A stretch of 64,000 nucleotides of DNA from the IMG/VR virus record IMGVR_UViG_3300028361_000020, positions 1-64,000 of that record; one strand, written 5' to 3'. Source of the stretch: a virus (lineage: Duplodnaviria > Heunggongvirae > Uroviricota > Caudoviricetes). Position 1 is the first letter of the stretch. Every line of letters begins with the position of its first letter. Below, one piece after another: positions 4,264 through 55,862 of the stretch. Under the pieces are notes generated by a model. The model was not told where the DNA came from. It searched no databases and was given only the letters and a program-made list of their open reading frames with translations. Both the position numbers and the translations under genes were made by a program.

Positions 4264-4337
4264 AGATATGTGTTGGTGCCCTCGGGGAGAATCGAAATCC
4301 CGTCGACGGATTACTAAACCGTTGCTAAACCACTCAG
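4264..4337 (-). tRNA. tRNA, anticodon ambiguous (AGT or TAG reading); acceptor GCCCTCG/CGAGGGC perfect
   Basis: Perfect 7-bp acceptor, T-loop TTCGATT, CCA encoded; anticodon stem has a T-T mismatch. Confidence 0.55.
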
Positions 4338-13490: not shown

Positions 13491-13877
13491 TTAGTACAAC
13501 ATCTCGTATCCAGTTCCTGTAAGCGCGTGCTTTAGTTGAGACCAAACACCAGGTTCCCATTCTCCTGGAATAGTAGATCTGCCTTGCTTTTCACACTCGT
13601 CAATTACGTCCTTTGCTTCTTTGAGTCCATATCCTGTTGAGGCGCGCACTGCTTTAATAGCTTGGATTTTTTGTCGGCTCAAGACACCGGGTACAGCGTG
13701 AATAGTCATTGATCCTGTTACGTTGCCTTTGATCATTGCAAACAACATCTGGCGCTTTATAGCCGGATCCAATGCATCCAGCATTGCATCTGCTTTTTCT
13801 TCTAGCAATCCTATCTCTTGATCCACTGCTCGCATAAATGATATAGTTGCGTAAATAAATTCTCCTGAATACTTCAT
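13491..13877 (-). CDS. protein with a ribosomal L7/L12 (bL12) C-terminal-domain-like module
   Basis: KIQAIKAVRASTGYGLKEAKDVIDE resembles the bL12 CTD signature K(V)IKAVR..TGLGLKEAKDLVE; the N-terminal 60 aa are unrelated. Confidence 0.55.
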   Translation of the reverse strand: MKYSGEFIYATISFMRAVDQEIGLLEEKADAMLDALDPAIKRQMLFAMIKGNVTGSMTIHAVPGVLSRQKIQAIKAVRASTGYGLKEAKDVIDECEKQGRSTIPGEWEPGVWSQLKHALTGTGYEMLY

Positions 13878-14835: not shown

Positions 14836-16230
14836 TTAGTTGCGAATAGTTGGATCAACTTGCAGATCTTGTGCAGTCTTAATCATAATCATTTGCATGA
14901 ACTGATCAACTGTTCCGAGTGCATTCCCGGTCGTACCACCTTCGCCGCCTGCGCTGCCGCTGTTAAACACTGTGCTCGGAACATTGATCGTTGCTGCTGC
15001 CGCGGCCCATACTGTCTGCGCTTGTACCCAAGCATCAAGTTTTTGAGCAAGTGCTCCGTCAGCAAGTAGAATTGCTTCTTTTGCATATGCTTCAGCGTCG
15101 GCTGCAACTGTTACACTTTCGGCTTCGATTCGTGCTCTTTCTAAGTCGATAACGGCCGTTTCACGTGCAAATTCAGCTTGCTCTAACCGTTGTCCAGCAG
15201 CAATGAGTACCAGCTGCTTTTGAGTTTCGGCACCAGTTGTTTGTTCAATTTGTTCAACTTGTGCCGTGGCCTGGCGACGTGCAATGTCGGTTGCACCAGT
15301 TTGGATGGCCAGCAAACGCTGTTCTTCCTGTTCCAAGCGCTGTTCACGTGCTACAACTCTACGTGACGATGCAGCTTTTCGTGCAATGATCTGATTCTCG
15401 TACTCATCATCCGGGTCAATGCCTTCGAGGATCGCCTGGCTTACTGTAATACCATACTGTGAAGAAACTGTTTCCCTACGAATCGGCTCGCCGTTTTGAT
15501 CTAGGATTTTCTCCATCACTAATTGTCTTACGTCAGTGTCACCAACCTGGTCTAAGTTTTCAGTTGCTTCGTCATCATTGGGTCTTGCTCTACTTGGAAC
15601 AATTCCGCCTGATTGATTAAGACTGATTTGGCGCACCATTGCCCGGCCTTTTGTGATTGTGTCATAAAATTCAGTCTTGAATTGATCACGCTGTCCGCCG
15701 CTGTAGTATTCTTCCATGGTAAACATGTTTGCAACGCTGTCGATACTTGCATTCACATCTGGAATCAGTGTGGAATTAACCAGCTGACTCAATGTTCGGA
15801 AGGTTTTTGACATCTCTACAAACTCTACCGGATCGTTTGGAATTTGAAAGATTGTGCTTTGCGTCACGTCGCCAGTCCAGTTGTCTGCCAATCGCACACG
15901 GTAAGGAGCATTGACTGCGTTTCCAACAGCATCCGGATTGGCAGTGTTTACAACTGTGATAAACTTGGGCCAAGTTGTACTGATGCCCCATCCTGCAAAA
16001 TACCAACCGGTATCCATCACTGCTGATTCTGTACTAAAGATAGTACGCACATGCGTTTGGAATCCTGCATCGTTATAGCCGAATGCGCTGCTGGATAGTA
16101 CCAATGTGCAGGCGCCGAATGCGCCGCCTGCAATGACTTTTTTGATTCGTAAAAGTTCTTTTGGAAAGGGAATGAACAATGCTGCAAGTGCAACAAAGAG
16201 CAAAATTCCCGATAAAATTAGACCACCCAT
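14836..16230 (-). CDS. SPFH/band-7 (stomatin/prohibitin/HflKC-like) membrane protein, 464 aa
   Basis: N-terminal TM helix; coiled-coil-rich EQ/AEA segment (ETAVIDLERARIEAES..AEAYAKEAILLADGALAQ) typical of band-7 proteins. Confidence 0.65.
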   Translation of the reverse strand: MGGLILSGILLFVALAALFIPFPKELLRIKKVIAGGAFGACTLVLSSSAFGYNDAGFQTHVRTIFSTESAVMDTGWYFAGWGISTTWPKFITVVNTANPDAVGNAVNAPYRVRLADNWTGDVTQSTIFQIPNDPVEFVEMSKTFRTLSQLVNSTLIPDVNASIDSVANMFTMEEYYSGGQRDQFKTEFYDTITKGRAMVRQISLNQSGGIVPSRARPNDDEATENLDQVGDTDVRQLVMEKILDQNGEPIRRETVSSQYGITVSQAILEGIDPDDEYENQIIARKAASSRRVVAREQRLEQEEQRLLAIQTGATDIARRQATAQVEQIEQTTGAETQKQLVLIAAGQRLEQAEFARETAVIDLERARIEAESVTVAADAEAYAKEAILLADGALAQKLDAWVQAQTVWAAAAATINVPSTVFNSGSAGGEGGTTGNALGTVDQFMQMIMIKTAQDLQVDPTIRN

Positions 16231-16256
16231 GGTGTGTCTCCTATTGAGGTTAAGTG

Positions 16257-16544
16257 TTAAAGTTTGATTTTTTGTATAACGCCATCAAGCGTTACACGAG
16301 CTTCTTCGTAGTTTTCGATCCAGTACCAGACTGAATTTTCTACGTATTTTGCAAGCAGATAGATGCTGCCAAACAGTGCCACGTTGGGCAAAATGTATTC
16401 CAGAAAGATTTGCATCAGTGTCTCCTCGTTAGGTACATTATAATGTACAGTAGCATTGTCTGTGTATGCTGTCAATGATAAAGGCGGAACTAAATCCGCC
16501 TTTATCTTTATTATCACTGGGTTGTACGAATAGTTACAGAACAA
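16257..16544 (-). CDS. small membrane protein, 95 aa
   Basis: ORF with a hydrophobic segment. Confidence 0.35.
   Translation of the reverse strand: MFCNYSYNPVIIKIKADLVPPLSLTAYTDNATVHYNVPNEETLMQIFLEYILPNVALFGSIYLLAKYVENSVWYWIENYEEARVTLDGVIQKIKL
16468..16495 (-). terminator. intrinsic terminator hairpin GGCGGA-ACTAAA-TCCGCC with flanking T/A runs
   Basis: aaaggcggaactaaatccgcctttat. Confidence 0.5.
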
Positions 16545-16720
16545 TCATCTTCGTTGTTGAATTTCATTGTTTCCTTGACTTTTTCGTCTAAAATGCGTTT
16601 GTGGTTAGCTTTCCAAACGCTTGCAACCCACGCAGTGTATTCCTGTCTGTTAGTATCTTTCAAATTCAACATCAAGGTATTCCTCCTCTTTAAGTGCAGC
16701 ACGTTCGCGCACTTGGTCAA
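16514..16720 (-). CDS. hypothetical protein, 68 aa
   Basis: ORF; overlaps the nadV 3' end. Confidence 0.3.
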   Translation of the reverse strand: MTKCANVLHLKRRNTLMLNLKDTNRQEYTAWVASVWKANHKRILDEKVKETMKFNNEDDCSVTIRTTQ

Positions 16721-18077
16721 AAGTATCTTCGATCAACAGCTTTCCGTTGCGGAAAATAGGGCGTAACAAGTTGCCTTTCTTGTCTGCAACAGATTTAGGA
16801 ACAGTACGGAAACTGCCGCCGCAGACGCCGGTTTGGTATATAAGTCCGAGGCGACCTTTCTTTGAAGTCTTACCTCCGTGGATTGGGTCTTTGAAGACGT
16901 CAGTCCACTCGCCATCTGATGCCATAATTGCGCTTGCTTTCATGGCGTACTTTAAGCTATCGCGGTTGACTAATTGCAGCAATCCCCCGCCCATTCCAAA
17001 TGCAATATTATCAATGCTCAGTCCTGCCCGGATCAAGTTATTGATCAATTGTGGCAAGCTGTGTTCACTGATACCGTCGCCTTGAATTACACGAATGTAG
17101 GACGGCAGTATTCTAAAGCCTTTTGAATTAACAGTAAATCCAAACTCTTCCATTAGAAGTTCTACAACATCAATTGGAACAGTCAACGGATCCCCACTGT
17201 CTGGCCGAACAACCAATGTGCCACCTTTATCGATGATCTTTTCTTTTAGTTCGCCCCACATCTTAATAGCTTCGTAGATGTTGTAGCTGTCGCTCACACA
17301 TGCATAAATTTTGCCTTCGCCACCGAATAGCTCGATCATGTTTTCGTAGGCAGCTTTTTCGTTTTCTCTGCCCCAGCTTGTGATAGTAGAGTGTTCACTT
17401 GCTGGAATTGAAAATCCTGGCATGTCTGCGCCATAGTAACGTCTTGCTCCTACAATTCCTTCAATGGTGTCGCTGCCCATAAAGTTAACAAGGTGACCCA
17501 TTCCACCAAGCTTTGCAGCTTCGTGTGATGTTGCGCCTCGTGCTCCAAAGTCGTGCAGCTTGAACATAATCTGATCCATTACTGGAACATCGCTGGTTGT
17601 TGCCAGCGCACGAGCAATGATAGCTTTCATTTTACGTGATTTTGTTGCAACAGTCGAAGGGTACCAAACACCTCTTAGTGTAAGTGGCTCCAAAAAGCCT
17701 GGCAACCACCAAAAACGCGGATCAGTGTTGATGATCTGCATTTGTACGTTTGAAATAGGCATGTATGTGCCTTCGGCAACTGCTTCGATTTCGATTGGGA
17801 GACGACCGCTGAATTCCTCAACAATAATGTCCCATAGTTCTCTATAGAAAGGTTCACCGTGCTGAGTGATGATCATTTCTGCTTCATCAATCATTTCAAT
17901 GGTAACAACCTCTCCTATTAGATATTCTTTGATCAACGCCTGCGCGCCGAAGAACACTGAGTTCTCCTCGCCTCCTCGACTTTCAATATATGAACTCACA
18001 TACTGTGTGCCTTTTGGAAACTGGTGTGGTTGACTGTACTTGTACGAGTCTGATAGTAGTATAATATTATGTTTCAT
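16650..18077 (-). CDS. nadV: nicotinamide phosphoribosyltransferase (NAMPT/NadV)
   Basis: N-terminus MKHNIILLSDSYKYSQ; 475 aa; family-typical length and motifs throughout. Confidence 0.9.
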   Translation of the reverse strand: MKHNIILLSDSYKYSQPHQFPKGTQYVSSYIESRGGEENSVFFGAQALIKEYLIGEVVTIEMIDEAEMIITQHGEPFYRELWDIIVEEFSGRLPIEIEAVAEGTYMPISNVQMQIINTDPRFWWLPGFLEPLTLRGVWYPSTVATKSRKMKAIIARALATTSDVPVMDQIMFKLHDFGARGATSHEAAKLGGMGHLVNFMGSDTIEGIVGARRYYGADMPGFSIPASEHSTITSWGRENEKAAYENMIELFGGEGKIYACVSDSYNIYEAIKMWGELKEKIIDKGGTLVVRPDSGDPLTVPIDVVELLMEEFGFTVNSKGFRILPSYIRVIQGDGISEHSLPQLINNLIRAGLSIDNIAFGMGGGLLQLVNRDSLKYAMKASAIMASDGEWTDVFKDPIHGGKTSKKGRLGLIYQTGVCGGSFRTVPKSVADKKGNLLRPIFRNGKLLIEDTFDQVRERAALKEEEYLDVEFERY

Positions 18078-18097
18078 TTTAGAAATCCTCTAAGTTG

Positions 18098-18427
18098 TTA
18101 TGCCGATCCTCTTTGAATCGGACTTTCGGGTAAGGTTGATTCAGGAGCAGCGGATTGCCACTCCTTTGTCCATCTTACAAGATCTGTATAACCTGCGGGC
18201 CAATCATCTCGCCCAAGGTCGGTTAATTTTCCACAGCACATGCACTCGAATGAAACTGCACTTTCTTTGCTGCCCCAACTTTCACCAGACACACCAGGAA
18301 AAAATCGTAAATCACTGCGGGTAACTTGTAGAATAGCTTCGCAACCTTTGCCGCCATTTCCCCAGCCAGAACATGTTACTTCAGTAGCCCAGCTGTGTCC
18401 AAACTTTCCTGGTTTAATTACTTTCAT
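18098..18427 (-). CDS. hypothetical Trp/Gly-rich protein, 109 aa
   Basis: ORF. Confidence 0.4.
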   Translation of the reverse strand: MKVIKPGKFGHSWATEVTCSGWGNGGKGCEAILQVTRSDLRFFPGVSGESWGSKESAVSFECMCCGKLTDLGRDDWPAGYTDLVRWTKEWQSAAPESTLPESPIQRGSA

Positions 18428-18438
18428 TGTTGTGTTCC

Positions 18439-19554
18439 TTATCCGATGTTAATGAAGTTGTCAACAATCGCAAAGTGATCCTCAAACATTTGTGTACGGT
18501 CTACTTCGTTAAACGGTACCCATCGTGCTAGTTCTGCATCGTCACTGCCTTTTACTTTTGGCAGAGTTTTATCAAACCCGAGGTCGATGAAAAACGCAGT
18601 TGTAATGGTGCGGCCGCGGGTTGATCGGAATGGATCATCAAAGGTCTTTGATGCCCGGATGCTGCCGCGCAGTACCGGAACTGGAACTTTGATTTTTGTT
18701 TCTTCTTTTAGCTCGCGCAGCGCACCGGCCTCGAGGCGTTCTCCTGGATTAAGGAATCCACCAGGCAGTGCCCAAAGTCCTATACCCGGTGCATGCTTGC
18801 GCTTGACCAATAAAATGTGTCCACTTTGCACTACAACTGCATCAGTTGTTACAAAGGTGGGTGCATATGGTGCGGATTTCCAGGATTCTTTGTATTGTTG
18901 AATCATACTGTATTCAACAAACAGTGTTGCAAATTCTTCGTGTGCCCATTCTCTAACAATGTCGTCCAGTATATCAGCAGATTCTGCTGGCATGGTATCA
19001 CACATAAATAATTCTACACCGCGGTAAGGACCGTGTTCAAAAATAGTTTCACGGATCGGTGTTGCATCAATTCCATCTACATTGGCAACACTTTCGCTGC
19101 CCCATGTAGGGAAGATTTTCAAGTAAAAGCTGGTTCCGTCTTTTTCGTGGCCAATGAGACCAATGCGCAGAGGATCGGGGGAGTATTTCATTGCGCTGAA
19201 CACCACAGATTGTACAGCAGCAACCCATTTGTTGTCGTCGTATGGATAATCACACACTGGCACAACTTTGACATTGTCCTGTGGATACACCGCCTTGATC
19301 ATCGACTTGCGTTCTTCAAACGTGAATGGGTTGCGAGTATTTCTTGCACTAAAGCTGGACCCAAGCACAAGGATCACTTCTTTTGCCAGTTTCAGTGCAG
19401 CGTCAACCACTGCTTTGTGCCCCAGGTGAAATGGCTGGAACCTGCCAATGAACACCAGTGCGTCGTAGCGGATTTCTGTTTTGGAATTTTCCGATAGTGC
19501 AGTAGTGGCTTTTAGTTTGCTATGTATAGTGTCGTTAATTAAGTCGTATTTCAT
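18439..19554 (-). CDS. natV: bifunctional NMN adenylyltransferase / Nudix hydrolase (NatV-type)
   Basis: (H/T)xGH motif FIGRFQPFHLGH plus Nudix box GGFLNPGERLEAGALRELKEETKI. Confidence 0.9.
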   Translation of the reverse strand: MKYDLINDTIHSKLKATTALSENSKTEIRYDALVFIGRFQPFHLGHKAVVDAALKLAKEVILVLGSSFSARNTRNPFTFEERKSMIKAVYPQDNVKVVPVCDYPYDDNKWVAAVQSVVFSAMKYSPDPLRIGLIGHEKDGTSFYLKIFPTWGSESVANVDGIDATPIRETIFEHGPYRGVELFMCDTMPAESADILDDIVREWAHEEFATLFVEYSMIQQYKESWKSAPYAPTFVTTDAVVVQSGHILLVKRKHAPGIGLWALPGGFLNPGERLEAGALRELKEETKIKVPVPVLRGSIRASKTFDDPFRSTRGRTITTAFFIDLGFDKTLPKVKGSDDAELARWVPFNEVDRTQMFEDHFAIVDNFINIG

Positions 19555-19604
19555 TTGCTAAAACTCCTTTAGCGTGTTTAGGCAAAACTCTATGTCTTGC
19601 TTTT

Positions 19605-19633
19605 AGTATACACTCGCAACAAGCGTGTGTCAA
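19605..19633 (-). promoter_or_regulatory. consensus sigma70-like early promoter TTGACA-17-TATACT for the NAD operon
   Basis: Minus strand reads TTGACAcacgcttgttgcgagtgTATACT. Confidence 0.6.
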
Positions 19634-19697
19634 GTATTAGGTGGCAAGATATGTTATTTTGCCCACATCCAACTTCCATTTTCTTTCTGTGTAAACA

Positions 19698-20705
19698 TCA
19701 TATACCCCTGTTAATTAGTTTGAGAACTGAGGCGTGCGCCTGTTCGGTGCGTGTGACAAAGTCGGTGTCACTGATTACAATATAGTTGCGGTTGTTGTCA
19801 ACTAAAAATTTCAACATCTCTTCAAAGAACCATTCACGTTGTTTTTGTTTTTCGACAATTCTGGTTCCGTCCTGTACCCACTTAACAGTAGGCGCCAGAA
19901 CAATATACAAATCAAAGTGTTGCTTCTTTGCGTACTCCAGTGCCATTTCCAACGGCTTGTCCAGGTACAAGTGCGAAAACAAGTAAGTAGTGAACGCTTC
20001 TGTGTCAGTTACTGTAACTGGCATTTCTGCCTTGTACGCATATTCATTAACCCAGTTGTCTTGGATTTTGACAATAGCTTCGAAGTCTTTTTCGTTAACT
20101 TCTTCTTTTACTTCAGTTATCATGCGGCCGTATTCTTGAATAGGAGTTCCGATGTTGCGCAAGCGAAAACTTTCAACTAATATAGACTTGCCTGTTGATT
20201 CCGGTCCAACTACTGCTACTCTCTTGTGAAAACTACGCTTTGCAGGTGCTGACATAAAACTCCAATTTTCTAACAGCGCCTCTCTAATTGCTGTGCTGCT
20301 AATAGGGTGCATTTCACGATGCGGGTCAATTGGTAACCATCGGCAACCGAGCACCTCTGCAGCTTTCTTGCCATACATATCCGAACTTACAAAGTAATCA
20401 AGCTTGGGGAGGTGCAGTTCAAACTCCGCCTTCCATTTGTCCCAAACTGTTGGGTCTATGATTGTGCCATTTTCGTCTACTTCGCTCGACGGGATGTTGT
20501 CTATGTGTTTGATAATGTGTACATTTTGGTTATCAGCAAATAGTTCGCATAACCACTTGTAACGTGTGGACAGCGGAACAACATCAGTTTCATTTCCAGA
20601 GACCATAATATATAGTTGATCTACTACAGATAATGCAGTGATAAACATGTTCAAATGACCCAGGTGTAAGTTTGTAAACTTGCCTATTGTACCGCCGATT
20701 GTCAT
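19698..20705 (-). CDS. NadR-like bifunctional NMN adenylyltransferase / ribosylnicotinamide kinase (no HTH domain)
   Basis: N-terminal GKFTNLHLGH nucleotidyltransferase motif; C-terminal Walker A VVGPESTGKS kinase domain. Confidence 0.75.
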   Translation of the reverse strand: MTIGGTIGKFTNLHLGHLNMFITALSVVDQLYIMVSGNETDVVPLSTRYKWLCELFADNQNVHIIKHIDNIPSSEVDENGTIIDPTVWDKWKAEFELHLPKLDYFVSSDMYGKKAAEVLGCRWLPIDPHREMHPISSTAIREALLENWSFMSAPAKRSFHKRVAVVGPESTGKSILVESFRLRNIGTPIQEYGRMITEVKEEVNEKDFEAIVKIQDNWVNEYAYKAEMPVTVTDTEAFTTYLFSHLYLDKPLEMALEYAKKQHFDLYIVLAPTVKWVQDGTRIVEKQKQREWFFEEMLKFLVDNNRNYIVISDTDFVTRTEQAHASVLKLINRGI

Positions 20706-20706
20706 A

Positions 20707-21330
20707 TCAGGCTTCCTGTGTCTTCATTGCGTTGTACCAAGTAACTGCGCCGTATGTGGCCAGTCCAAGGAACACAACGTACAGTCCAGATATTACATAC
20801 AGCTCTCTGCTATAGTAAAGCGGAATAGCAATCAAGTCCATTGCAATCCAGATGATCCAGTTTTCCCAAACCTTTTTCAACAGCAAGATCGATGCAGCAA
20901 TTGACATGGTTGTGGTTAATGCATCAACATACGGAACGGCTGCATCTGTAAAGGTGGACATTATAAAGCCTACCAGCACCGCTCCAAATAAGATGCCAAT
21001 GGCAATTAAAATTCTTGTAGTATTTGCAATTGTCACAATCTTCATACTGTCAAGAGTGTCACTGGCAACTTCGCCTAGTGTTTTGCCATATTTCCACATC
21101 ACAAAGCCAACAATTTGCAGCGGCGCATAAAACGCCCATTGCAACAGCATGTCGGAGTACAGTTGGACTTCCATAAACACGTATCCCATAACAAGGACAC
21201 CTGCCAATCCAAACCAATAATTGATGAGTTTTTGTTTTGCTAACAAGTATACGTTAGCGATTAATAGCACCGTGGCTAGTAATTCAATCTGACCTAGTGG
21301 GCCAGAGAAGTAGTTAATAATCGTATCCAT
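20707..21330 (-). CDS. pnuC: PnuC nicotinamide riboside transporter
   Basis: 207 aa, about 7 TM helices, Trp-rich PnuC-like pattern; genomic context with a NadR-like gene. Confidence 0.7.
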   Translation of the reverse strand: MDTIINYFSGPLGQIELLATVLLIANVYLLAKQKLINYWFGLAGVLVMGYVFMEVQLYSDMLLQWAFYAPLQIVGFVMWKYGKTLGEVASDTLDSMKIVTIANTTRILIAIGILFGAVLVGFIMSTFTDAAVPYVDALTTTMSIAASILLLKKVWENWIIWIAMDLIAIPLYYSRELYVISGLYVVFLGLATYGAVTWYNAMKTQEA

Positions 21331-21382
21331 TTGCTAAAACTCCTTTAGCAGTTAACGTAGCACTCTTTGTGTCTACATGTTA

Positions 21383-21411
21383 TTTATACTACATGTTGCA
21401 ATACTTGTCAA
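21383..21411 (-). promoter_or_regulatory. promoter TTGACA-17-TATAAA overlapping a T4-late-like TATAAATA box
   Basis: Minus strand reads TTGACAagtattgcaacatgtagTATAAATA. Confidence 0.55.
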
Positions 21412-21454
21412 GTGCTGATTACACGATGTACTCTGATTCAGTAACAGACTTTGC

Positions 21455-22054
21455 TTAGTAATGCAAAGCCTTTTTAAAACCCTCAGAGATATGTATTGTA
21501 AAATCAATGCCGTCTAAAACGTTATTCCAAAACGGATCAAGATCTTTAATTTTAACATTGTTATAAATGGTATCTCGCAGCTTTAACATATAATCTAGAT
21601 TGGCTGCTGCAAACACCTTATCGGGTATTTTGTACAACTTTGTGCTCTCATCTAGCATCTTAACATAGTTTGCAAGTACAAGTGCAGGTGTTGCGAGTTG
21701 ATGCAAGTCGGCTTTGATCATTTCTACACATTGCCAACTTCGGCCTGTGATATTGTGATCTGCTGTTGCTATTATAATATCAAACACACCTGTGCGTTTT
21801 GGGTACATTTTTTCAACCCATTGTGCGCTGCGCAGTTCTTTGCAATCTAGTTCGTCGTATACAATGTCATGGTGCATCACTGCCCAGTCGAGATCCTCAT
21901 CGTAGGGAACGTTGTTGATCTCTAAATAATCATAACAACTTAAAATATGGCGCCAATTATGATAGGCAAGGTTATTACCGTCATACCGATCTTTGGCTAT
22001 AACTTCTATACTTGTGAGGCTGTATAAGGTATCGCCAATTAATTTACTCCACAT
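21455..22054 (-). CDS. putative HD-domain phosphohydrolase, 199 aa
   Basis: H(N)WRH ... MHHD ... D spacing. Confidence 0.4.
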   Translation of the reverse strand: MWSKLIGDTLYSLTSIEVIAKDRYDGNNLAYHNWRHILSCYDYLEINNVPYDEDLDWAVMHHDIVYDELDCKELRSAQWVEKMYPKRTGVFDIIIATADHNITGRSWQCVEMIKADLHQLATPALVLANYVKMLDESTKLYKIPDKVFAAANLDYMLKLRDTIYNNVKIKDLDPFWNNVLDGIDFTIHISEGFKKALHY

Positions 22055-22058
22055 TTTT

Positions 22059-22574
22059 TCATCCTATTTTATATTTTACAATACGATAGCATTTGCCATC
22101 CATAAAGTCTTCCAGCATTTGATTTGCATCTTCTATATATCCTGGGATAAGATATTTCCCAGAAATACACGATACTGAAACATTAGGATCACCATTACTG
22201 TATTCCCCTCTTCCTGCCACGTTGCCACTACAACGGTTTAAAATAACGCTAGTTGGTGTTACTAACTCGTGTCCATTAAAGATTGTTTGTGCTAGAACTA
22301 TAGAATTATCTTGCACTCTTACATGCCCGGGCAAAAAGCTGCCATCGCCTATAATTACATTGTCGCCTAAATGTACCCAATTTCCAAGATGCACATTGTT
22401 ACCAACAACAGTGTTTCTTCCAATTTTAGTCCACAAGCCTATGTCTACATTGTTGCCAATTTTTGACCAACTGCTGATTCTAGTCCATGGACCAAGTGTG
22501 AAGTTTTTGCCAATTGTGACACTCGGTGACAATGATGGGGTATTTTTCCAGAATTTAAGAAATTCAAAGTTCAT
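22059..22574 (-). CDS. left-handed beta-helix (hexapeptide-repeat) acyltransferase-like protein
   Basis: Repeated [LIV]G-x-x-x-x hexads (IGNNVDIGLWTKIGRNTVVGNNVHLGNWVHLGDNVIIGDGS). Confidence 0.6.
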   Translation of the reverse strand: MNFEFLKFWKNTPSLSPSVTIGKNFTLGPWTRISSWSKIGNNVDIGLWTKIGRNTVVGNNVHLGNWVHLGDNVIIGDGSFLPGHVRVQDNSIVLAQTIFNGHELVTPTSVILNRCSGNVAGRGEYSNGDPNVSVSCISGKYLIPGYIEDANQMLEDFMDGKCYRIVKYKIG

Positions 22575-37650: not shown

Positions 37651-38566
37651 CAGCAACCTCCATCCATTTAGCACAAGCTTTCCATTGTACATTTGTGTTG
37701 ATGTGCTTTGATACATAATGCAATAACATCTCGCGCATGTCGTCGCCATCCAGCAAGCGAAACACAAAGCTGGCGTCGGTCTTGTTTTGCAACTTAGGAA
37801 TAAACTTTGTAGCAACCGACTTACGATCTGGATATTTTACAGCTTTTTCATAAAGTGCCTTGACACGATCTTCGGTGCGACCAAACGCATCCCAGAATCG
37901 AACTTCGAAATCGCGGATACGATCTGCATCTACTTGTGGCAACTGGCCGATCACATCGTCGAGATCCTCGTTGACAATCAATGCAACAATGTTACGATCG
38001 AACCGCACACGATCCAGTGTTTTATGGATACGCACATACCAGTCGTTCTTGCCTTTGTACATCTCGCCGTTGAAGCTGATGATAAACCCTTCACGACCTT
38101 CGTCGTTGCGGTGCTTGGCAACGTAGTCATCCAGCGTACCATCAACCGAGTCATGTAACACAACTTGTGTAATTGAGTCCGGTGTTGAATTCTGGCGACC
38201 CAAGTAGTTGCCAGTTAGATTATGACGGATTGCCAGCAGCACAAGGTCAGCAGATCGATATCCTAGCACAATCTGGTTATCGGGCGCTACAAACTCAAAC
38301 AATGGAGTAACTCCCATTTTTACAGCTTTTTCTAACCAATGCATTTCTGCTTGGTAGTTAGAACGAGTACGCATGTACCTTTCGGCTTGCTCGCTCACAT
38401 CAGTTACCCCCATCTTAGTAGCAAGACGGACAACGCCATTAATGATCAATGGTCTAATCATTGAGTTATGCACAAGAATGTTATTAGCAAAAAAATTATT
38501 AGTAGATGTCTGGATGTCATATCGGAGAGAATTGTTTCTAATTTTTTTAATATTTGCAATTTTCAC
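37634..38566 (-). CDS. rnlA: RNA ligase 1 (RnlA) C-terminal fragment preceded by a 34-aa split-intein C-half (IntC)
   Basis: MKIANIKKIRNNSLRYDIQTSTNNFFANNILVHN|S resembles DnaE IntC and ends with HN+Ser; the downstream extein SMIRPLIINGVVRL...FEFVAPDNQIVLGYR matches T4 Rnl1 after KEDG. Confidence 0.8.
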   Translation of the reverse strand: MKIANIKKIRNNSLRYDIQTSTNNFFANNILVHNSMIRPLIINGVVRLATKMGVTDVSEQAERYMRTRSNYQAEMHWLEKAVKMGVTPLFEFVAPDNQIVLGYRSADLVLLAIRHNLTGNYLGRQNSTPDSITQVVLHDSVDGTLDDYVAKHRNDEGREGFIISFNGEMYKGKNDWYVRIHKTLDRVRFDRNIVALIVNEDLDDVIGQLPQVDADRIRDFEVRFWDAFGRTEDRVKALYEKAVKYPDRKSVATKFIPKLQNKTDASFVFRLLDGDDMREMLLHYVSKHINTNVQWKACAKWMEVADAVVV

Positions 38567-38602
38567 AAATTTTCCTTTACAAAGTAGGTGTTTGTCTAGT
38601 TT

Positions 38603-38610
38603 TTATATAA
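38603..38610 (+). promoter_or_regulatory. T4-late-type promoter box TATAAATA upstream of the plus-strand homing endonuclease gene
   Basis: tttttaTATAAATAcc, then SD-like aaggat 8 nt before the ATG. Confidence 0.4.
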
Positions 38611-38634
38611 ATACCATACACGAAGAAATAAAGG

Positions 38635-39651
38635 ATGTCAACTATGAAATGTTATGTTTGTGAAGATAAAATAGAAGAAAAGTTCAGTCATTTTTATACA
38701 TGCGCTAACGGCTTATCCAAACCGGAACATTTAATAAATCTTATATGCTATAATTCTAACACAAGCAAGTCAGATTTTAAAAATGACCTAATAAATATGT
38801 ATGTTGTTCAGGATTTTTCAATTAAGGATTTATTAGATCATTTTAACATACAACGGTTATCAAGTAGTACGTTATATAAGATTATATATTACTTAGGTAT
38901 TCCTAAGAAGACTACCACGAGATCAAAACGAACTCAAGAAAAATACAAAAAAACTTGTCTTGAAAAATACGGCACAATAAATGCTCTTTCCAAAGATACA
39001 ATTGCATATCATAAACGAAATGATACTGTAAAACGTAAATATGAGGTCGACAATGTCAGATCGGCGCAAGAAATAAAGGATAAAATTAATATTACTATGC
39101 TTGCCAAATATGGAACACTACGAAGAACAAATATTGAGAAGCAGAAAGAAACAAAAGCAAACTGGTCTAATGAGTACAGAGCTGCGCTTGGTGATAAGAT
39201 TAGTGCTGGCCGTAAAAAGTGGTGGGCTAATTTAACAGATTCAGAAAAATATAATGCTTGTAAAAGATCTGGGCTTAACCAATATTCTGGCAAAATGAAT
39301 TCTATTGAGTCGGTAATTGCCGAGGCGCTAGCTTCATTAGGAATATCGTATATATTTTCATATTTTATTGGGAATAGACAATTTGACTTCAAGATAGGCA
39401 CTATATTGATTGAATGTCAAGGTGATTTCTGGCATGCTAACCCAATATTTTATAACGAAGGAGACGTTGTAACTCATCCAGGTAATAAAAATAAACCAGT
39501 ATCTGATATTTGGGAAAATGATAAAAAGAAACAATTACTTGCCGAAAAGAAAGGATTTACAGTTATTGAAATATGGGAATATGAAATTAATAACTGTACT
39601 GATCTACCCCAACTTATTCTTCAAAAAATAGAAGGTCTTCTTCCCCAGTGA
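38635..39651 (+). CDS. free-standing homing endonuclease-like gene (N-terminal Zn finger, KYGT repeats, C-terminal Vsr/DUF559-like PD-(D/E)xK nuclease domain) lying between the two rnlA fragments
   Basis: Only plus-strand gene in the region; AT-rich; C-terminal ILIECQGDFWH ... KGFTVIEIWEYE resembles Vsr/DUF559 motifs. Confidence 0.6.
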   Translation: MSTMKCYVCEDKIEEKFSHFYTCANGLSKPEHLINLICYNSNTSKSDFKNDLINMYVVQDFSIKDLLDHFNIQRLSSSTLYKIIYYLGIPKKTTTRSKRTQEKYKKTCLEKYGTINALSKDTIAYHKRNDTVKRKYEVDNVRSAQEIKDKINITMLAKYGTLRRTNIEKQKETKANWSNEYRAALGDKISAGRKKWWANLTDSEKYNACKRSGLNQYSGKMNSIESVIAEALASLGISYIFSYFIGNRQFDFKIGTILIECQGDFWHANPIFYNEGDVVTHPGNKNKPVSDIWENDKKKQLLAEKKGFTVIEIWEYEINNCTDLPQLILQKIEGLLPQ

Positions 39652-40303
39652 GCTCATCTGCCCGTATATAATCGCTTATATCGGTGCACCAAATTTTGTG
39701 ATTTCCAGTAAGTTTTAGGATATGCCCATTAGTCAATTCTATTTCATACCAATCATCACATTGGGTTTTAATAGCCGATGCCAATACAGGTGTCCACATT
39801 ATCTGCTTTTTTAAATTCTGCCCTAATACAAGTCCATTATAGTTAGTTTCACATAAAAATTTTATAGTTTTGCCACCATCAGGTGTTGCAATAATACTAT
39901 CTTCATCAAGACACCCGTCCATTTTTTCCATAACAGTGTGCGGACGTGTCATGTCGATGTTTTTTGACAGTGTTTCTTCACGCTCGTTGATGTTAAAAAA
40001 CTTGTGGAACGGACGAGACATAAGTTCTCCGTCTTCACCAAATATCAATCCGCGGCATTCGCGCTTGATCCTGCTGGACAGGCTGCGTTCTTCACGCATC
40101 TTTGCGCTGCCGCCTGCAACTGCAATTGGTGGAAAGGTGTCTGGCATGGACACGGCATAGTTAATTACAGTAAAGCCGTCGCGCTCTGCAACAATAAACT
40201 CGTCACATCCTTTGATATGCGGAAGTACATCGTTGATAGTGCGTATCTCGGGAAATTTGTAAGACATGTTGCCTCCATTAAACTCTAGCACTACTCGGTG
40301 CAT
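39614..40303 (-). CDS. rnlA: RNA ligase 1 (RnlA) N-terminal fragment fused to a split-intein N-half (IntN)
   Basis: RECRGLIFGEDGEL..RPFHKFFNINE..NIDMTRPHTVMEKMDG matches T4 Rnl1 up to the KxDG adenylation motif; it is followed directly by intein block A CLDEDSIIATPDGG and block B TNGHILKLTGNH. Confidence 0.8.
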   Translation of the reverse strand: MHRVVLEFNGGNMSYKFPEIRTINDVLPHIKGCDEFIVAERDGFTVINYAVSMPDTFPPIAVAGGSAKMREERSLSSRIKRECRGLIFGEDGELMSRPFHKFFNINEREETLSKNIDMTRPHTVMEKMDGCLDEDSIIATPDGGKTIKFLCETNYNGLVLGQNLKKQIMWTPVLASAIKTQCDDWYEIELTNGHILKLTGNHKIWCTDISDYIRADELTGEEDLLFFEE

Positions 40304-50983: not shown

Positions 50984-52540
50984 TTACGGATTTAATTCTT
51001 CATACGCTGCTTTGCAGGTTGCATAAAAGTTTGTCATTTCTGGAAATGTATTGAGGAAATCCTTGCCGCGTCTGCGGTCGTATTCATTTACAAACTGGTA
51101 GAACGAACTTCTTCCGTGGGTAATTTTTTTAGTTTTGATATCTGTAGGATGAAGGTCACATGCAGTCATTACATCCAATAAGATTCTTTTTAATTTAAGC
51201 GATTCGTTGCTTAAAAACCCTGTATTACCGTTCCACTCGTCGGCAGCATTTGCGTACATAAAATTCACAGAAGGCAGCAAGAATTCAGCAACCAGTTCCT
51301 TGGTTGACAACGCCACATCCAAAAACTCTGGGTGTCTAACATAAGGAATATCAATGCCAATCCGATTGTATGAACGATGCGTGTTGGTATACCCGGATGT
51401 TTTGTATTTTGTCAACCCGAGGTTTACTGTGTTGTCTAAGTTGACTCCACTTTGGTCTAATTGCTGAAATATGTGGTGTTTGTTGTACGTCTTCTTCAAT
51501 GACAGCACATATTCTAAAAAGTCTAGGAAGGTTGGGAGACTGAACAAGTTAAACGCTGCCATAAATGTAACGCGAGTATCGGTTGTGTTCCCAAGAAAGT
51601 ATGTTAAATTTTCTTTGAGCATGTTCCAATTCATACCGTCTCGGCTGTATTCGGCCTGACCCTCGACACTTTCGGCACTGAGGAATAACGTAACTCGCTT
51701 GACACATTTTTCATCAACCAATTGATTTGACAACTTGGTAAACTGTTTCCACAACTTGTCGGGCGGGCAACCGTTGCTGTTGATGGCAAACTCCATGTTG
51801 GGATTTGGATGTTCCAGCATGTATTCCATTAGTTTGACAGTGTGTTTGCTCATCAACGGTTCTCCGCCTGTGACACGCAATGTGTGCAGATGCGGCAGTG
51901 CTTCGGGCAACCATTTCCAGAATGCATCAGTGTATGGATTGTCTTCTCGATTTTTAATTTGCTCTGCTGGATTGCCGTTGTACTGTACGCCCGGGAATAA
52001 ATAGGCACCGTGTTCTGTTATTTCATCTACCCATTTGCTGCTGAAGCTTGGCCCACAATATGCACATTTAAAATTGCATACATTACTGAAACTAATTTCC
52101 ATATATTTTGGAAATACATTCTCGTCGCCCTTTAGTGCAGCAATTTCATCAAAGTTATGCACACTGTACGGATCCAAACTTTTTAACGTGCGATCGCTGG
52201 TCTCATTGGTGTTGTCCTCGATGCGCCAACAGAAGTCACATTCTGATGGTCTTTTGCCGTTGAGCATTTGCTTGCGGGCTGTCTTTTTATGCTCTGTGTT
52301 GTGCAATGCACTAGGATTGACTTCGAGTTCGTTCAACGGAATTTTATGTGCAGTGGGATGGTGACAACTGTGTGTTAACCCTGATCCCAAGTGCATAGTA
52401 ACTTGTGTCCATTTTGCCAAACAAAAGCCCGGACCAGTTTCGTTGAGTAATTCTTGCATCTTGTCGCAGTTGTTTTTACTATGCTCGATATAGCCACTGG
52501 GCTGTTTGTCCCATTCAACATCATCAAATTTCTTGGTCAT
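50984..52540 (-). CDS. radical SAM enzyme (MoaA/PqqE/SPASM-like CxxxCxxC) with a roughly 140-aa Cys/His-rich N-terminal extension, 518 aa
   Basis: EISFSNVCNFKCAYCG cluster at about residue 150; GGEPLM SAM-binding motif. Confidence 0.65.
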   Translation of the reverse strand: MTKKFDDVEWDKQPSGYIEHSKNNCDKMQELLNETGPGFCLAKWTQVTMHLGSGLTHSCHHPTAHKIPLNELEVNPSALHNTEHKKTARKQMLNGKRPSECDFCWRIEDNTNETSDRTLKSLDPYSVHNFDEIAALKGDENVFPKYMEISFSNVCNFKCAYCGPSFSSKWVDEITEHGAYLFPGVQYNGNPAEQIKNREDNPYTDAFWKWLPEALPHLHTLRVTGGEPLMSKHTVKLMEYMLEHPNPNMEFAINSNGCPPDKLWKQFTKLSNQLVDEKCVKRVTLFLSAESVEGQAEYSRDGMNWNMLKENLTYFLGNTTDTRVTFMAAFNLFSLPTFLDFLEYVLSLKKTYNKHHIFQQLDQSGVNLDNTVNLGLTKYKTSGYTNTHRSYNRIGIDIPYVRHPEFLDVALSTKELVAEFLLPSVNFMYANAADEWNGNTGFLSNESLKLKRILLDVMTACDLHPTDIKTKKITHGRSSFYQFVNEYDRRRGKDFLNTFPEMTNFYATCKAAYEELNP

Positions 52541-54975: not shown

Positions 54976-55094
54976 CAACCTCTCAACGAAGTGGTTGTAT
55001 GCAGGACCTTGGATAAGGCAGTCGTTGCTGCCTAAGCTTGCTATCCTAGTCTTTAAACCAGGAAGGAAGTTAATCTTTCTCGCAAGCTATTGTT

Positions 55095-55171
55095 GGACTA
55101 GGATGGACTTGAACCAACGACCTCCCACGCGACAAAGCATAGGCGCTCTTCCAATCTGAGCTACGTAGTCC
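55095..55171 (-). tRNA. tRNA-like; D-arm and T-arm canonical, anticodon arm unresolved, no CCA
   Basis: GCTC-AGATTGGAA-GAGC; GTTGG-TTCAAGT-CCATC; acceptor GGACTAC/CTAGTCC (6 of 7 pairs). Confidence 0.35.
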
Positions 55172-55412: not shown

Positions 55413-55862
55413 TTAATAAATGTACACAACCGGTTTTACATTGGTGAATTCACTCTCAATAATGGTAGCAATAACATTCCAATTGCCGCCACCCAGGCCA
55501 GCGCCAATCTGCGGCATTGCAACATGAGAATGGCCCCTGCATTCGCAAAATTCATTGATGTTGCGCATTGCATCGGATACTGCATCGTAGCTAACGTATC
55601 GCTTTTTTTCGCCGCCATAGAACTGCTGTGTAATTGCATTGATCAAAACTTTGTCGTTTTCTTCTACAGGAATAATACAGCCCATTGCAAGACCAATAGT
55701 AATTGCAGCATACTGGTTTAAATATGCATTGTACGCCAACGGAAAGTCGTCTCGTACAATCTTTGCCACGCCACTACCCATAACACCTTGTGCATTGCAG
55801 CCGTGTGCAAGCACTTTGATATCAGTTTTAAACATGTCGCCGTTTCGATATTCAATCTTCAT
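55413..55862 (-). CDS. macro-domain protein (ADP-ribose binding/processing)
   Basis: VLAHGCNAQGVMGSGVAKIV fits the macro-domain Gly-rich loop; 149 aa. Confidence 0.65.
   Translation of the reverse strand: MKIEYRNGDMFKTDIKVLAHGCNAQGVMGSGVAKIVRDDFPLAYNAYLNQYAAITIGLAMGCIIPVEENDKVLINAITQQFYGGEKKRYVSYDAVSDAMRNINEFCECRGHSHVAMPQIGAGLGGGNWNVIATIIESEFTNVKPVVYIY

Follow-up and report, generated by a model that had tools for sequence, protein, structure and literature searches.

A conserved two-hairpin leader RNA precedes three genes of a combined NAD+ salvage cluster in a large uncultured phage

The DNA analysed here is a 64,000-nucleotide (nt) stretch of a tailed phage, hereafter the window (positions 1 to 64,000 of the IMG/VR record IMGVR_UViG_3300028361_000020; Caudoviricetes), which carries a cluster of NAD+ salvage genes on its minus strand. 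Three of these genes, pnuC, natV and nadV, are each preceded by a leader of ~48 nt that forms two hairpins, and this leader is a conserved sense-strand RNA structure embedding the Shine-Dalgarno sequence (SD) of the gene that follows. The best joint explanation, to which we assign a probability of about 0.8, is that the cluster joins two known phage NAD+ routes in one large phage and that the cis-acting leader co-ordinates their translation. The cluster itself would belong to the early region of an uncultured phage of at least 251 kb. A first account of this DNA, made from its letters and referred to below as the sequence-only reading, described the salvage genes and left out both the shared leader RNA and two conserved small open reading frames (ORFs).

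The genes pnuC and natV have the same 22 bases (GCTAAAGGAGTTTTAGCAAATG) upstream of their start codons, and no other site in the window comes within 3 mismatches of this block. It folds as GCUAAA[GGAGU]UUUAGC, with the SD in the bracketed loop, and distant relatives carry GCAAAA[GGAGU]UUUUGC at this place, which is a compensated change. In the pnuC leader, the first hairpin (H1) spans 21378..21355 with loop AAAGA and the second (H2) 21350..21332 with loop GGAGU, ahead of the AUG at 21330; the covariance model R2 scores this leader at 51.5 bits (E 2.1e-8), and its minimum free energy (MFE) is -14.2 kcal/mol (z -3.18). The natV leader has H1 at 19600..19582 (loop AUAGA), H2 at 19573..19557 (loop GGAGU) and the AUG at 19554, with an R2 score of 59.2 bits (E 3.5e-10) and an MFE of -12.2 kcal/mol (z -2.66). 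The H1 of the nadV leader (18121..18103, loop AAAGA) lies within the 3' end of the upstream orf109 and is followed by H2 (18092..18080, loop GGAUU) and the AUG at 18077; R2 assigns it 46.6 bits (E 2.9e-7), and both hairpins are present in the centroid fold. Furthermore, the covariance model R1, which was built from five natV leaders and no nadV leader, found sites that it had not been given, including the nadV leader of the window at E 2e-4. Over the 64 kb nothing beyond the three leaders reached E 0.01 with R2, and a relaxed hand-written descriptor applied to both strands returned exactly these three sites. Display of the SD in a hairpin loop was also considered as a general habit of this phage and was rejected, given 12 such sites against 9.4 expected, among which only the NAD leaders are strong.

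The consensus that emerges from the relatives is compact. H1 has a stem of 7-9 bp of variable sequence, closed by C:G or G:C, and its pentaloop (L1) reads A-N-(A/U)-G-A, with A1 present in 72/72, G4 in 72/72 and A5 in 71/71 sequences. The spacer between the hairpins is 7-14 nt long and almost free of G, while H2 consists of a 5-7-bp A/U-rich stem with an invariant A:U closing pair and the loop GGAG plus one base; an A follows, and then AUG within five bases. Covariation was assessed on an alignment of 74 distinct sequences, using 500 shuffles and controls in which the pairing partners were slid by 1-3 columns. Standard pairs occupy 94.3% of the cells as compared to 57.7% in the shuffles, and the covariation score of 0.825 (0.200 when shuffled) was reached by 0/500 shuffles, whereas the slid controls scored at most 0.11. 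Double changes occur in 13/14 pairs, the pairs of stem 1 use four to six pair types, and RNAalifold recovers the same two hairpins with compensatory changes in 12/13 pairs. The three innermost pairs of H1 include G-U cells and no unpaired cells, which fits pairing in the sense-strand RNA. A possible pseudoknot joining L1 to the 3' strand of H2 showed 75.9% paired as compared to 72.9% (7/500 shuffles) and is not claimed.

The leader is tied to NAD genes well beyond the window. An exact-pattern scan of IMG/VR brought up 12 contigs, in which the gene behind the motif, where a start codon followed, was natV, nadV, a PnuC-like gene or a small ORF beside pnuC; every example also had a second hairpin upstream of the SD hairpin, with an unrelated stem sequence and the loop A-N-A/U-G-A. 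A viral sample was then drawn from IMG/VR around homologues of NatV (45-65% identity), and matches at E<=1 were counted in its 80 loci. These loci hold 104 model matches, all on the gene strand and 0 on the other, which precede nadV (51), natV (42), pnuC (4) and other genes (7). NAD genes make up 157 of the ~1200 same-strand ORFs in these loci, which gives a Fisher p of 2e-91 for the association of the leader with them. Among sequenced isolates, the leader stands before both natV and nadV in Synechococcus phage B23, Roseobacter phage DSS3P8, Rhodobacter phage RcXuper and Vibrio phage 2.275.O, and it is absent or at most weak in the KVP40-like ValKK3, RB16, Aeh1, the T5-like pnuC/nadR locus, phiRSL1, DLP_6, ACP17, BONAISHI and RHph_I1_18. 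The descriptor also places a leader before a 307-aa protein whose N-terminus, read by eye, resembles quinolinate synthase NadA. Further leader-bearing genes encode recurrent unannotated families, namely 213-aa GWHSDG proteins, 117-120-aa GEDPNCDL..HYQP proteins and proteins of 81-99 aa; these unannotated and NadA-like genes are located at 4268.. of locus L042, 3970.. of L045, 1497.. of L046, 8476.. of L058 and 1663.. of L082. The unannotated proteins are candidates for new NAD-related functions.

Similarly, the leader is found in bacterial chromosomes. In 80 genome loci with NadM-Nudix homologues, the phage-trained model gave weak matches, though at the right places, while an independent descriptor marked 35 sites in 28/80 loci, 34/35 of them on the gene strand, with 0 sites in five shuffled controls. 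Twenty-five of these sites precede nadM and 9 precede nadV, and the carriers include Thiothrix, Marinicella, Hahella, Neptuniibacter, Marinobacter, Microbulbifer, a Kordiimonadaceae and a Rhodocyclaceae genome. Thiothrix caldifontis has a long, almost perfect hairpin in the interval from nadM to the nadV leader (L148, 4016..4121); it draws spurious matches to miRNA families of Rfam and is probably a terminator or a repetitive-element-like (REP-like) sequence. An Rfam cmscan of positions 16000..22500 of the window at E<=10, which included the NAD+-I and NAD+-II models, gave 0 matches, and in seven motif-bearing bacterial loci no Rfam match at E<=1 overlapped a leader. A blastn search of one leader against phage isolates returned noise only. 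In the literature searched, no nadV/nadM RNA motif or third NAD riboswitch was found, an absence that is not proof of novelty, and the leader is apparently undescribed until now.

The genes that the leader serves are well defined, and the identities of all four are shown by homology. PnuC matches the Pfam family NMN_transporter (PF04973, E 6.6e-46), passes the NCBIfam model TIGR01528 (96.4 bits, cut-off 42.45) and aligns with a solved PnuC (PDB 4qtn, E 4.1e-19). The NadR-like protein combines CTP_transf_like and AAA_28 domains and aligns with positions 66-407 of 411 of the NCBIfam NadR model only, therefore the helix-turn-helix (HTH) part is absent. Its best solved relative is chain 9x6f (E 2.5e-31), followed by Haemophilus influenzae NadR (1lw7, E 9.6e-30), and the motifs HxGH and ISSTxxR of its adenylyltransferase part and Walker A GPESTGKS of its kinase part are aligned to both. 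NatV contains CTP_transf_like and NUDIX domains with a Nudix box, exceeds the cut-off of NF003786 (438.4 bits against 397) and matches the Synechocystis NadM-Nudix structure 2qjo over its full length (E 2.5e-87). NadV contains NAMPT_N and NAPRTase domains, exceeds the cut-off of NF006629 (555.9 bits against 405) and is similar to solved nicotinamide phosphoribosyltransferases (Nampt), most closely to PDB 7yqo (E 8.3e-126). The profile searches that the sequence-only reading had proposed (NMN_transporter, CTP_transf_like, AAA_28, NUDIX, NAPRTase and Macro) thus all returned the expected families. The fit of the NadR-like ORF to both the nicotinamide mononucleotide (NMN) adenylyltransferase (Nmnat) and the ribosylnicotinamide kinase parts, together with that of PnuC to the NMN_transporter family, bears out its view of an HTH-less fusion enzyme beside a transporter.

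These genes correspond to two published pathways. NARP2, from Vibrio phage KVP40, consists of the Nampt NadV and the Nmnat-Nudix protein NatV (Osterman et al., bioRxiv 10.1101/2024.02.11.579819), in agreement with the earlier claim that NadV and NatV form a reported phage NAD+ route; the same preprint predicted PnuC with an HTH-less NadR as another route. NARP3, from Escherichia phage TrudiRoth, consists of the PnuC-like Bas30_87 and the HTH-less NadR-like Bas30_86; transport was demonstrated along with the kinase and adenylyltransferase reactions, crystal structures were solved, and the pair gave rescue from Sir2-HerA (PMC13464706; Sci Adv, August 2026). The proposed extension by a nicotinamide riboside route was therefore right but can no longer count as novel. 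The deposited nicotinamide-nucleotide adenylyltransferase 9x6f is, by our own inference, probably the structure of Bas30_86. The enzyme activities and the anti-defence role of the present cluster are attributed by analogy with these characterised homologues.

The features of the cluster are collected in Table 1. It consists of six ORFs, all on the minus strand, with two sigma-70-like promoters and one terminator-like hairpin. The sequence-only reading had described a four-gene operon at 16650-21411; the four genes stand at these coordinates and on this strand, but the cluster holds six ORFs, and it ends ~170 bases beyond that range, at the hairpin 16506..16477. A single base separates the pnuC stop codon (20707) from the nadR-like start codon (20705), and the spacer of 143 nt between the nadR-like gene and natV contains the second promoter.

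Table 1. Features of the NAD+ salvage cluster, in order of transcription, and the separate macro-domain gene (positions in the window).
Feature	Position	Strand	Description
Promoter P1	21381..21411	-	TTGACA (21411..21406), 17-nt spacer, TATAAATA (21388..21381); read from sequence
Leader of pnuC	21330..21377	-	covariance model R2
pnuC	20707..21330	-	207 aa; predicted nicotinamide riboside transporter
nadR-like	19698..20705	-	335 aa; predicted bifunctional NMN adenylyltransferase / ribosylnicotinamide kinase without HTH
Promoter P2	19605..19633	-	TTGACA-17-TATACT; 11/12 matches, top promoter-like site of a 10-kb scan
Leader of natV	19554..19601	-	covariance model R2
natV	18439..19554	-	371 aa; predicted NadM-type NMN adenylyltransferase + Nudix ADP-ribose pyrophosphatase fusion
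orf109	18098..18427	-	Cys-rich, zinc-ribbon-like, conserved small protein
Leader of nadV	18077..18122	-	covariance models R2 and R1
nadV	16650..18077	-	475 aa; predicted nicotinamide phosphoribosyltransferase
orf52	16514..16672	-	~52 aa, conserved, overlaps nadV end
Terminator-like hairpin	16477..16506	.	12-bp stem; terminator scan
Macro gene	55413..55862	-	Macro domain PF01661, 31.8 bits

The promoters deserve a separate comment. The cluster had been credited with its own consensus promoters, and both TTGACA-17-TATACT and TTGACA-17-TATAAATA are indeed present, but they are not distinctive, with 24 similar sites on the same strand. TTGACA-N16-18-TAnnnT occurs 26 times in the window, 24 times on the minus strand, as compared to 3.35 expected, therefore such promoters are a property of the whole early region and not of the cluster. 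The minus-strand sites include 3450, 3687, 12156, 25271, 46340 and 61915, often with a TG 2 or 3 bases ahead of the -10 hexamer (extended -10-like), and another promoter, TTGACA-17-TACTGT (16475..16447), lies just downstream of the terminator-like hairpin. The -10 element of P1 begins with TATAAA, without the final T usual for a -10 hexamer, and TATAAATA is also identical to the T4-type late-promoter consensus. Relatives carry the identical TTGACA-17-TATAAATA in front of their natV leaders. As judged from these sites, the whole window looks like an early region transcribed by the host RNA polymerase.

The preferred mechanism combines these elements. The cluster would be transcribed from the two host-type promoters up to the single hairpin, with pnuC and nadR translationally coupled. 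In the NARP3-like route, PnuC would import nicotinamide riboside, which the HTH-less NadR-like enzyme would phosphorylate to NMN and then adenylate to NAD+. In the NARP2-like route, NadV would form NMN from nicotinamide and phosphoribosyl pyrophosphate (PRPP), and NatV would adenylate it to NAD+, while its Nudix domain could convert ADP-ribose to AMP and ribose-5-phosphate. Both routes would restore NAD+ cleaved by host defences such as SIR2, TIR and similar effectors. As to the leader, we infer that it may act as a post-transcriptional cis-regulatory element: the weak, A/U-rich H2 would display the SD GGAG in its loop a few bases before the AUG, and the leader, responding to a trans-acting factor, would control whether ribosomes reach the SD and would thereby co-ordinate translation of the NAD salvage genes.

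Several observations weigh against this explanation. The alignments made with the covariance model are fitted to its structure and their sequences are related by descent, which inflates the shuffle statistics, although the slid controls and the diversity of stem-1 pairs do not depend on this. The motif is very simple, without internal loops or junctions and with two loops unable to pair mutually, and the SD by itself could account for the conservation of H2. Since the viral and bacterial samples were both centred on natV homologues, the association with natV is partly built in. The natV loci of RB16 and of the KVP40-like ValKK3, the latter closely related to the NARP2 prototype, lack the leader, as does the T5-like pnuC/nadR locus; the leader is therefore not required for these pathways. 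On the enzymatic side, the NadR-like protein scores below the NCBIfam equivalog cut-offs (189 against 341.15 bits and 143 against 201 bits), and the supply of PRPP for NadV is assumed to come from the host.

For the trans-acting factor, a small molecule of the NAD pathway, acting in a riboswitch-like manner, is our tentative candidate. Ligand binding apart, the leader has what is generally expected of a riboswitch, being a conserved structured leader that serves one pathway in distant lineages, and this distribution is, as far as sequence comparison goes, the classical signature of such elements. The more specific proposal is that it represents a new riboswitch class sensing an NAD-pathway metabolite (NAD+, NMN, nicotinamide, ADP-ribose or PRPP) and controlling nadM/natV, nadV, pnuC and occasionally nadA in bacteria and phages, which we consider doubtful. 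We are similarly sceptical that the factor is a protein such as NatV/NadM itself, although a protein operator is equally as simple to imagine as a riboswitch. Across the natV-centred loci examined, only NatV/NadM always accompanies the motif, which follows from the sample design, and NadV does so in most.

A different kind of alternative concerns the purpose of the cluster rather than its leader. It may be an auxiliary metabolic gene set, a general booster that raises NAD+ for replication in NAD-poor hosts, and no part of counter-defence. The KVP40 genes are said to have been read first as a salvage pathway (Miller 2003 and Lee 2017), which counts for this possibility, and free-living bacteria have homologous nadM-nadV operons with the same leader. 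Furthermore, NARP2 raised NAD+ even without a defence system (2024 preprint, bioRxiv 10.1101/2024.02.11.579819). However, both homologous pairs, NARP2 and NARP3, have been shown to overcome NAD-depleting systems, a DarG/TARG1-like macro gene is also present in the window, and boosting and counter-defence are not mutually exclusive; a purely metabolic role seems a questionable account.

The hairpins might also be non-regulatory, with H1 a generic stabilising or processing hairpin and H2 merely presenting the SD, inherited with the natV-nadV cassette and copied to pnuC. The simple architecture, in which the loop of H2 is just a strong SD, would suit this, as would the homology of the motif-bearing natV and nadV genes (45-73% identity), by which common descent explains part of the association, and the motif-free state of the relatives of the characterised NARP2 and NARP3 loci (KVP40-like natV, T5-like pnuC/nadR). 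In contrast, L1 is near-invariant at A1, G4 and A5 while the stems vary freely, and a stabiliser needs no fixed loop. In addition, the motif stands on at least four unrelated families (natV, nadV, pnuC and NadA-like), all of NAD metabolism, and on almost none of the ~1000 other neighbours, and it occurs in bacterial chromosomes as well as in phages that infect cyanobacteria, alpha- and gammaproteobacteria. A purely structural role is disfavoured because it leaves the invariant loop positions and the pathway specificity unexplained; we thus regard the non-regulatory account as improbable, and likewise a constitutive SD-presenting or stabilising structure as unlikely.

Finally, the inverted repeats could be DNA operators of an NAD transcription factor such as the Nudix-related NrtR, whose 21-bp palindromes govern nadM-nadV in Synechocystis and prs-nadV in Shewanella (PMC2330246), and H1 is indeed an inverted repeat of similar size (19-23 nt); but this is very improbable because NrtR sites retain the core GT-N7-AC while the H1 stems change freely in sequence under compensation, the conserved loops lack symmetry, matches lie on the sense strand (104/104 viral and 34/35 bacterial), the innermost H1 pairs include G-U and none unpaired, and the sites lie inside operons, directly before each start codon and around the SD.

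Of the two small ORFs, which are treated as conserved accessories, orf109 has zero Pfam and NCBIfam matches. Its family comprises 11 clusters with invariant C19, C29, C62, C64 and C65, and homologues of 54-61% identity lie between natV and nadV in several metagenomic contigs with differing flanks. The sole homologue found in sequenced phages is that of Sphingobium phage Lacusarx, ~9 kb from natV-nadV. The structural model of orf109 reached a predicted local distance difference test (pLDDT) score of 62.8, and a Foldseek search of the PDB with it gave nothing at E<=0.001. Positional homologues of orf52 follow nadV in the related loci L011, L012 and L014; its motif VWKAN..KRI is shared with them as VWK-N-ERNKRI, and orf52 is also called in public contigs that bear the identical nadR-like protein. 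Pfam gave nothing for orf52, for a 199-aa upstream ORF or for the other leader-associated proteins. Either ORF was considered as a universal trans-acting factor of the leader and rejected, as orf109 homologues occur in just 10/80 viral natV loci; for orf109, motif-bearing isolates lack a match at E<=0.01, and the Lacusarx homologue is distant from the genes.

The macro-domain protein had been suggested to process products derived from ADP-ribose. A genuine Macro domain (PF01661) is present, but a link to the operon is unsupported, as the protein is of DarG/TARG1 type and its gene lies 34 kb from the cluster in its own context. The best profile match is the macro domain of the DarG antitoxin, with BT1257, DarG macrodomains and TARG1 as solved relatives. 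This points to removal of ADP-ribose from DNA or protein as a separate counter-defence and not to a feed for salvage, and the protein may be an orphan anti-DarT (DNA de-ADP-ribosylating) factor. The macro gene is not counted as part of the NAD salvage system.

The window is of phage origin, with rIIA, rIIB, a CCA-adding enzyme and a homing endonuclease among its genes, 28 tRNA genes and almost all genes on the minus strand. A contig of 251,140 bp carries an orf109 copy identical to that of the window, and 33 blocks of ENA metagenome assemblies hold the nadR-like protein in identical form. When the cluster was compared to 50,697 phage records by megablast, a 52-nt nadV fragment alone was matched, therefore the cluster is without a sequenced close relative; the closest rIIA matches are at most ~42% identical over half of its length. 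An IMG/VR scan with the single NadR-like protein as query gave zero matches.

A few other features of this region can be recorded. ARAGORN calls a tRNA at 55094..55171 (-) with the four-base anticodon ttgt and undetermined identity, which could be frameshift-suppressor-like or degenerate. A 128-aa ORF at 13491..13877 (-), also present at 16820..17206 of locus L003, has a precomputed Pfam match to Ribosomal_L12 (PF00542), and the phage thus appears to encode a protein similar to ribosomal protein L7/L12. Directly downstream of the NAD cluster lies a Band_7/SPFH protein of 464 aa (phrog_11908; 14836..16230, -), and in phage RB16 an SPFH/band-7 gene adjoins natV (L198, 899..1813), which may indicate a recurring neighbourhood. 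The largest plus-strand ORF of the window (38635..39651, 338 aa) is homing-endonuclease-like and lies in the stretch of lowest GC (0.354 at 38001-40000), therefore it is probably a mobile insertion. Finally, a 518-aa protein (50984..52540, -) has weak radical-SAM matches in PHROGs.

The enzymes themselves add little new, but the cluster shows NARP2 and NARP3 united in a single phage as a compact early operon that would draw on both nicotinamide and nicotinamide riboside. More weight attaches to the leader, a short RNA that is easy to synthesise; comparative evidence for it is strong, and it marks NAD salvage genes of bacteria and of phages whose hosts are unrelated. As a sensor, it would add a third kind to the NAD-related riboswitches and would be the first layer of regulation described for NAD+ reconstitution by phages. 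With a riboswitch, phages could adjust NAD+ reconstitution to the NAD state of the cell that they infect, and the few leader-bearing unannotated genes would join the NAD/ADP-ribose conflict toolkit as new members. If it only affects translation or stability, it would still be a compact, portable expression signal that works across hosts. The covariance model or the simple descriptor offers a search handle for further NAD-related phage genes of unknown function.

Known regulatory elements resemble the leader in part. NrtR operators (PMC2330246) control the same genes through inverted repeats of similar length, but they are DNA palindromes with a conserved core, whereas the leader behaves as a sense-strand RNA structure. 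The class I (nadA motif) and class II (pnuC motif) NAD+ riboswitches share the logic of a structured 5' leader before genes of NAD biosynthesis or transport. In class II the SD forms part of the element. Both differ from the leader, which consists of two plain hairpins with conserved loops and matches no Rfam model. The guanidine-II riboswitch (mini-ykkC) consists of two small tandem hairpins near the SD, whose stems and linker vary and whose short loops are conserved. Its layout is comparable to that of the leader, but the loop sequences are unrelated, and the guanidine-II loops pair mutually, which A-N-W-G-A and GGAGU cannot.

Among phage pathways, the gene set is by predicted function NARP3 fused to NARP2, both already characterised, and its enzymes are ordinary. 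As in NARP2, the two protein families are encoded by adjacent, co-directional genes and NatV shares the NadM-Nudix architecture, with ~37% identity between the window NatV and that of the KVP40-like ValKK3; however, the module here includes two conserved small ORFs and a leader per gene, the KVP40-like locus is leaderless, and KVP40-like phages have their NadR/PnuC genes at a locus apart from natV. As in NARP3, which is reported mainly in Enterobacteriaceae phages (PMC13464706), the transporter adjoins a co-directional HTH-less NadR-like enzyme with adenylyltransferase and kinase parts, but the order is pnuC-nadR instead of the nadR-pnuC of the T5-like phage examined, the proteins are ~29-31% identical to those of T5-like phages, and the pair, behind a leader that the T5-like locus lacks, is joined to a NARP2 module. 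A survey of viral proteomes had noted NadR possibly co-occurring with NadM and NadV in one genome. In a tblastn search of the 50,697 phage records with the four proteins concatenated, 2,619 records had some match, and all four genes shared a neighbourhood in two, the jumbo Vibrio phages 2.275.O._10N.286.54.E11 and BONAISHI. There the genes spread over 6.7-8.6 kb in a different order with hypothetical ORFs in between, whereas the window holds the four genes and the two small ORFs within 4.8 kb, and the unusual feature of this gene set is its tight packing. Vibrio phage 2.275.O carries the same leader ahead of its natV and nadV.

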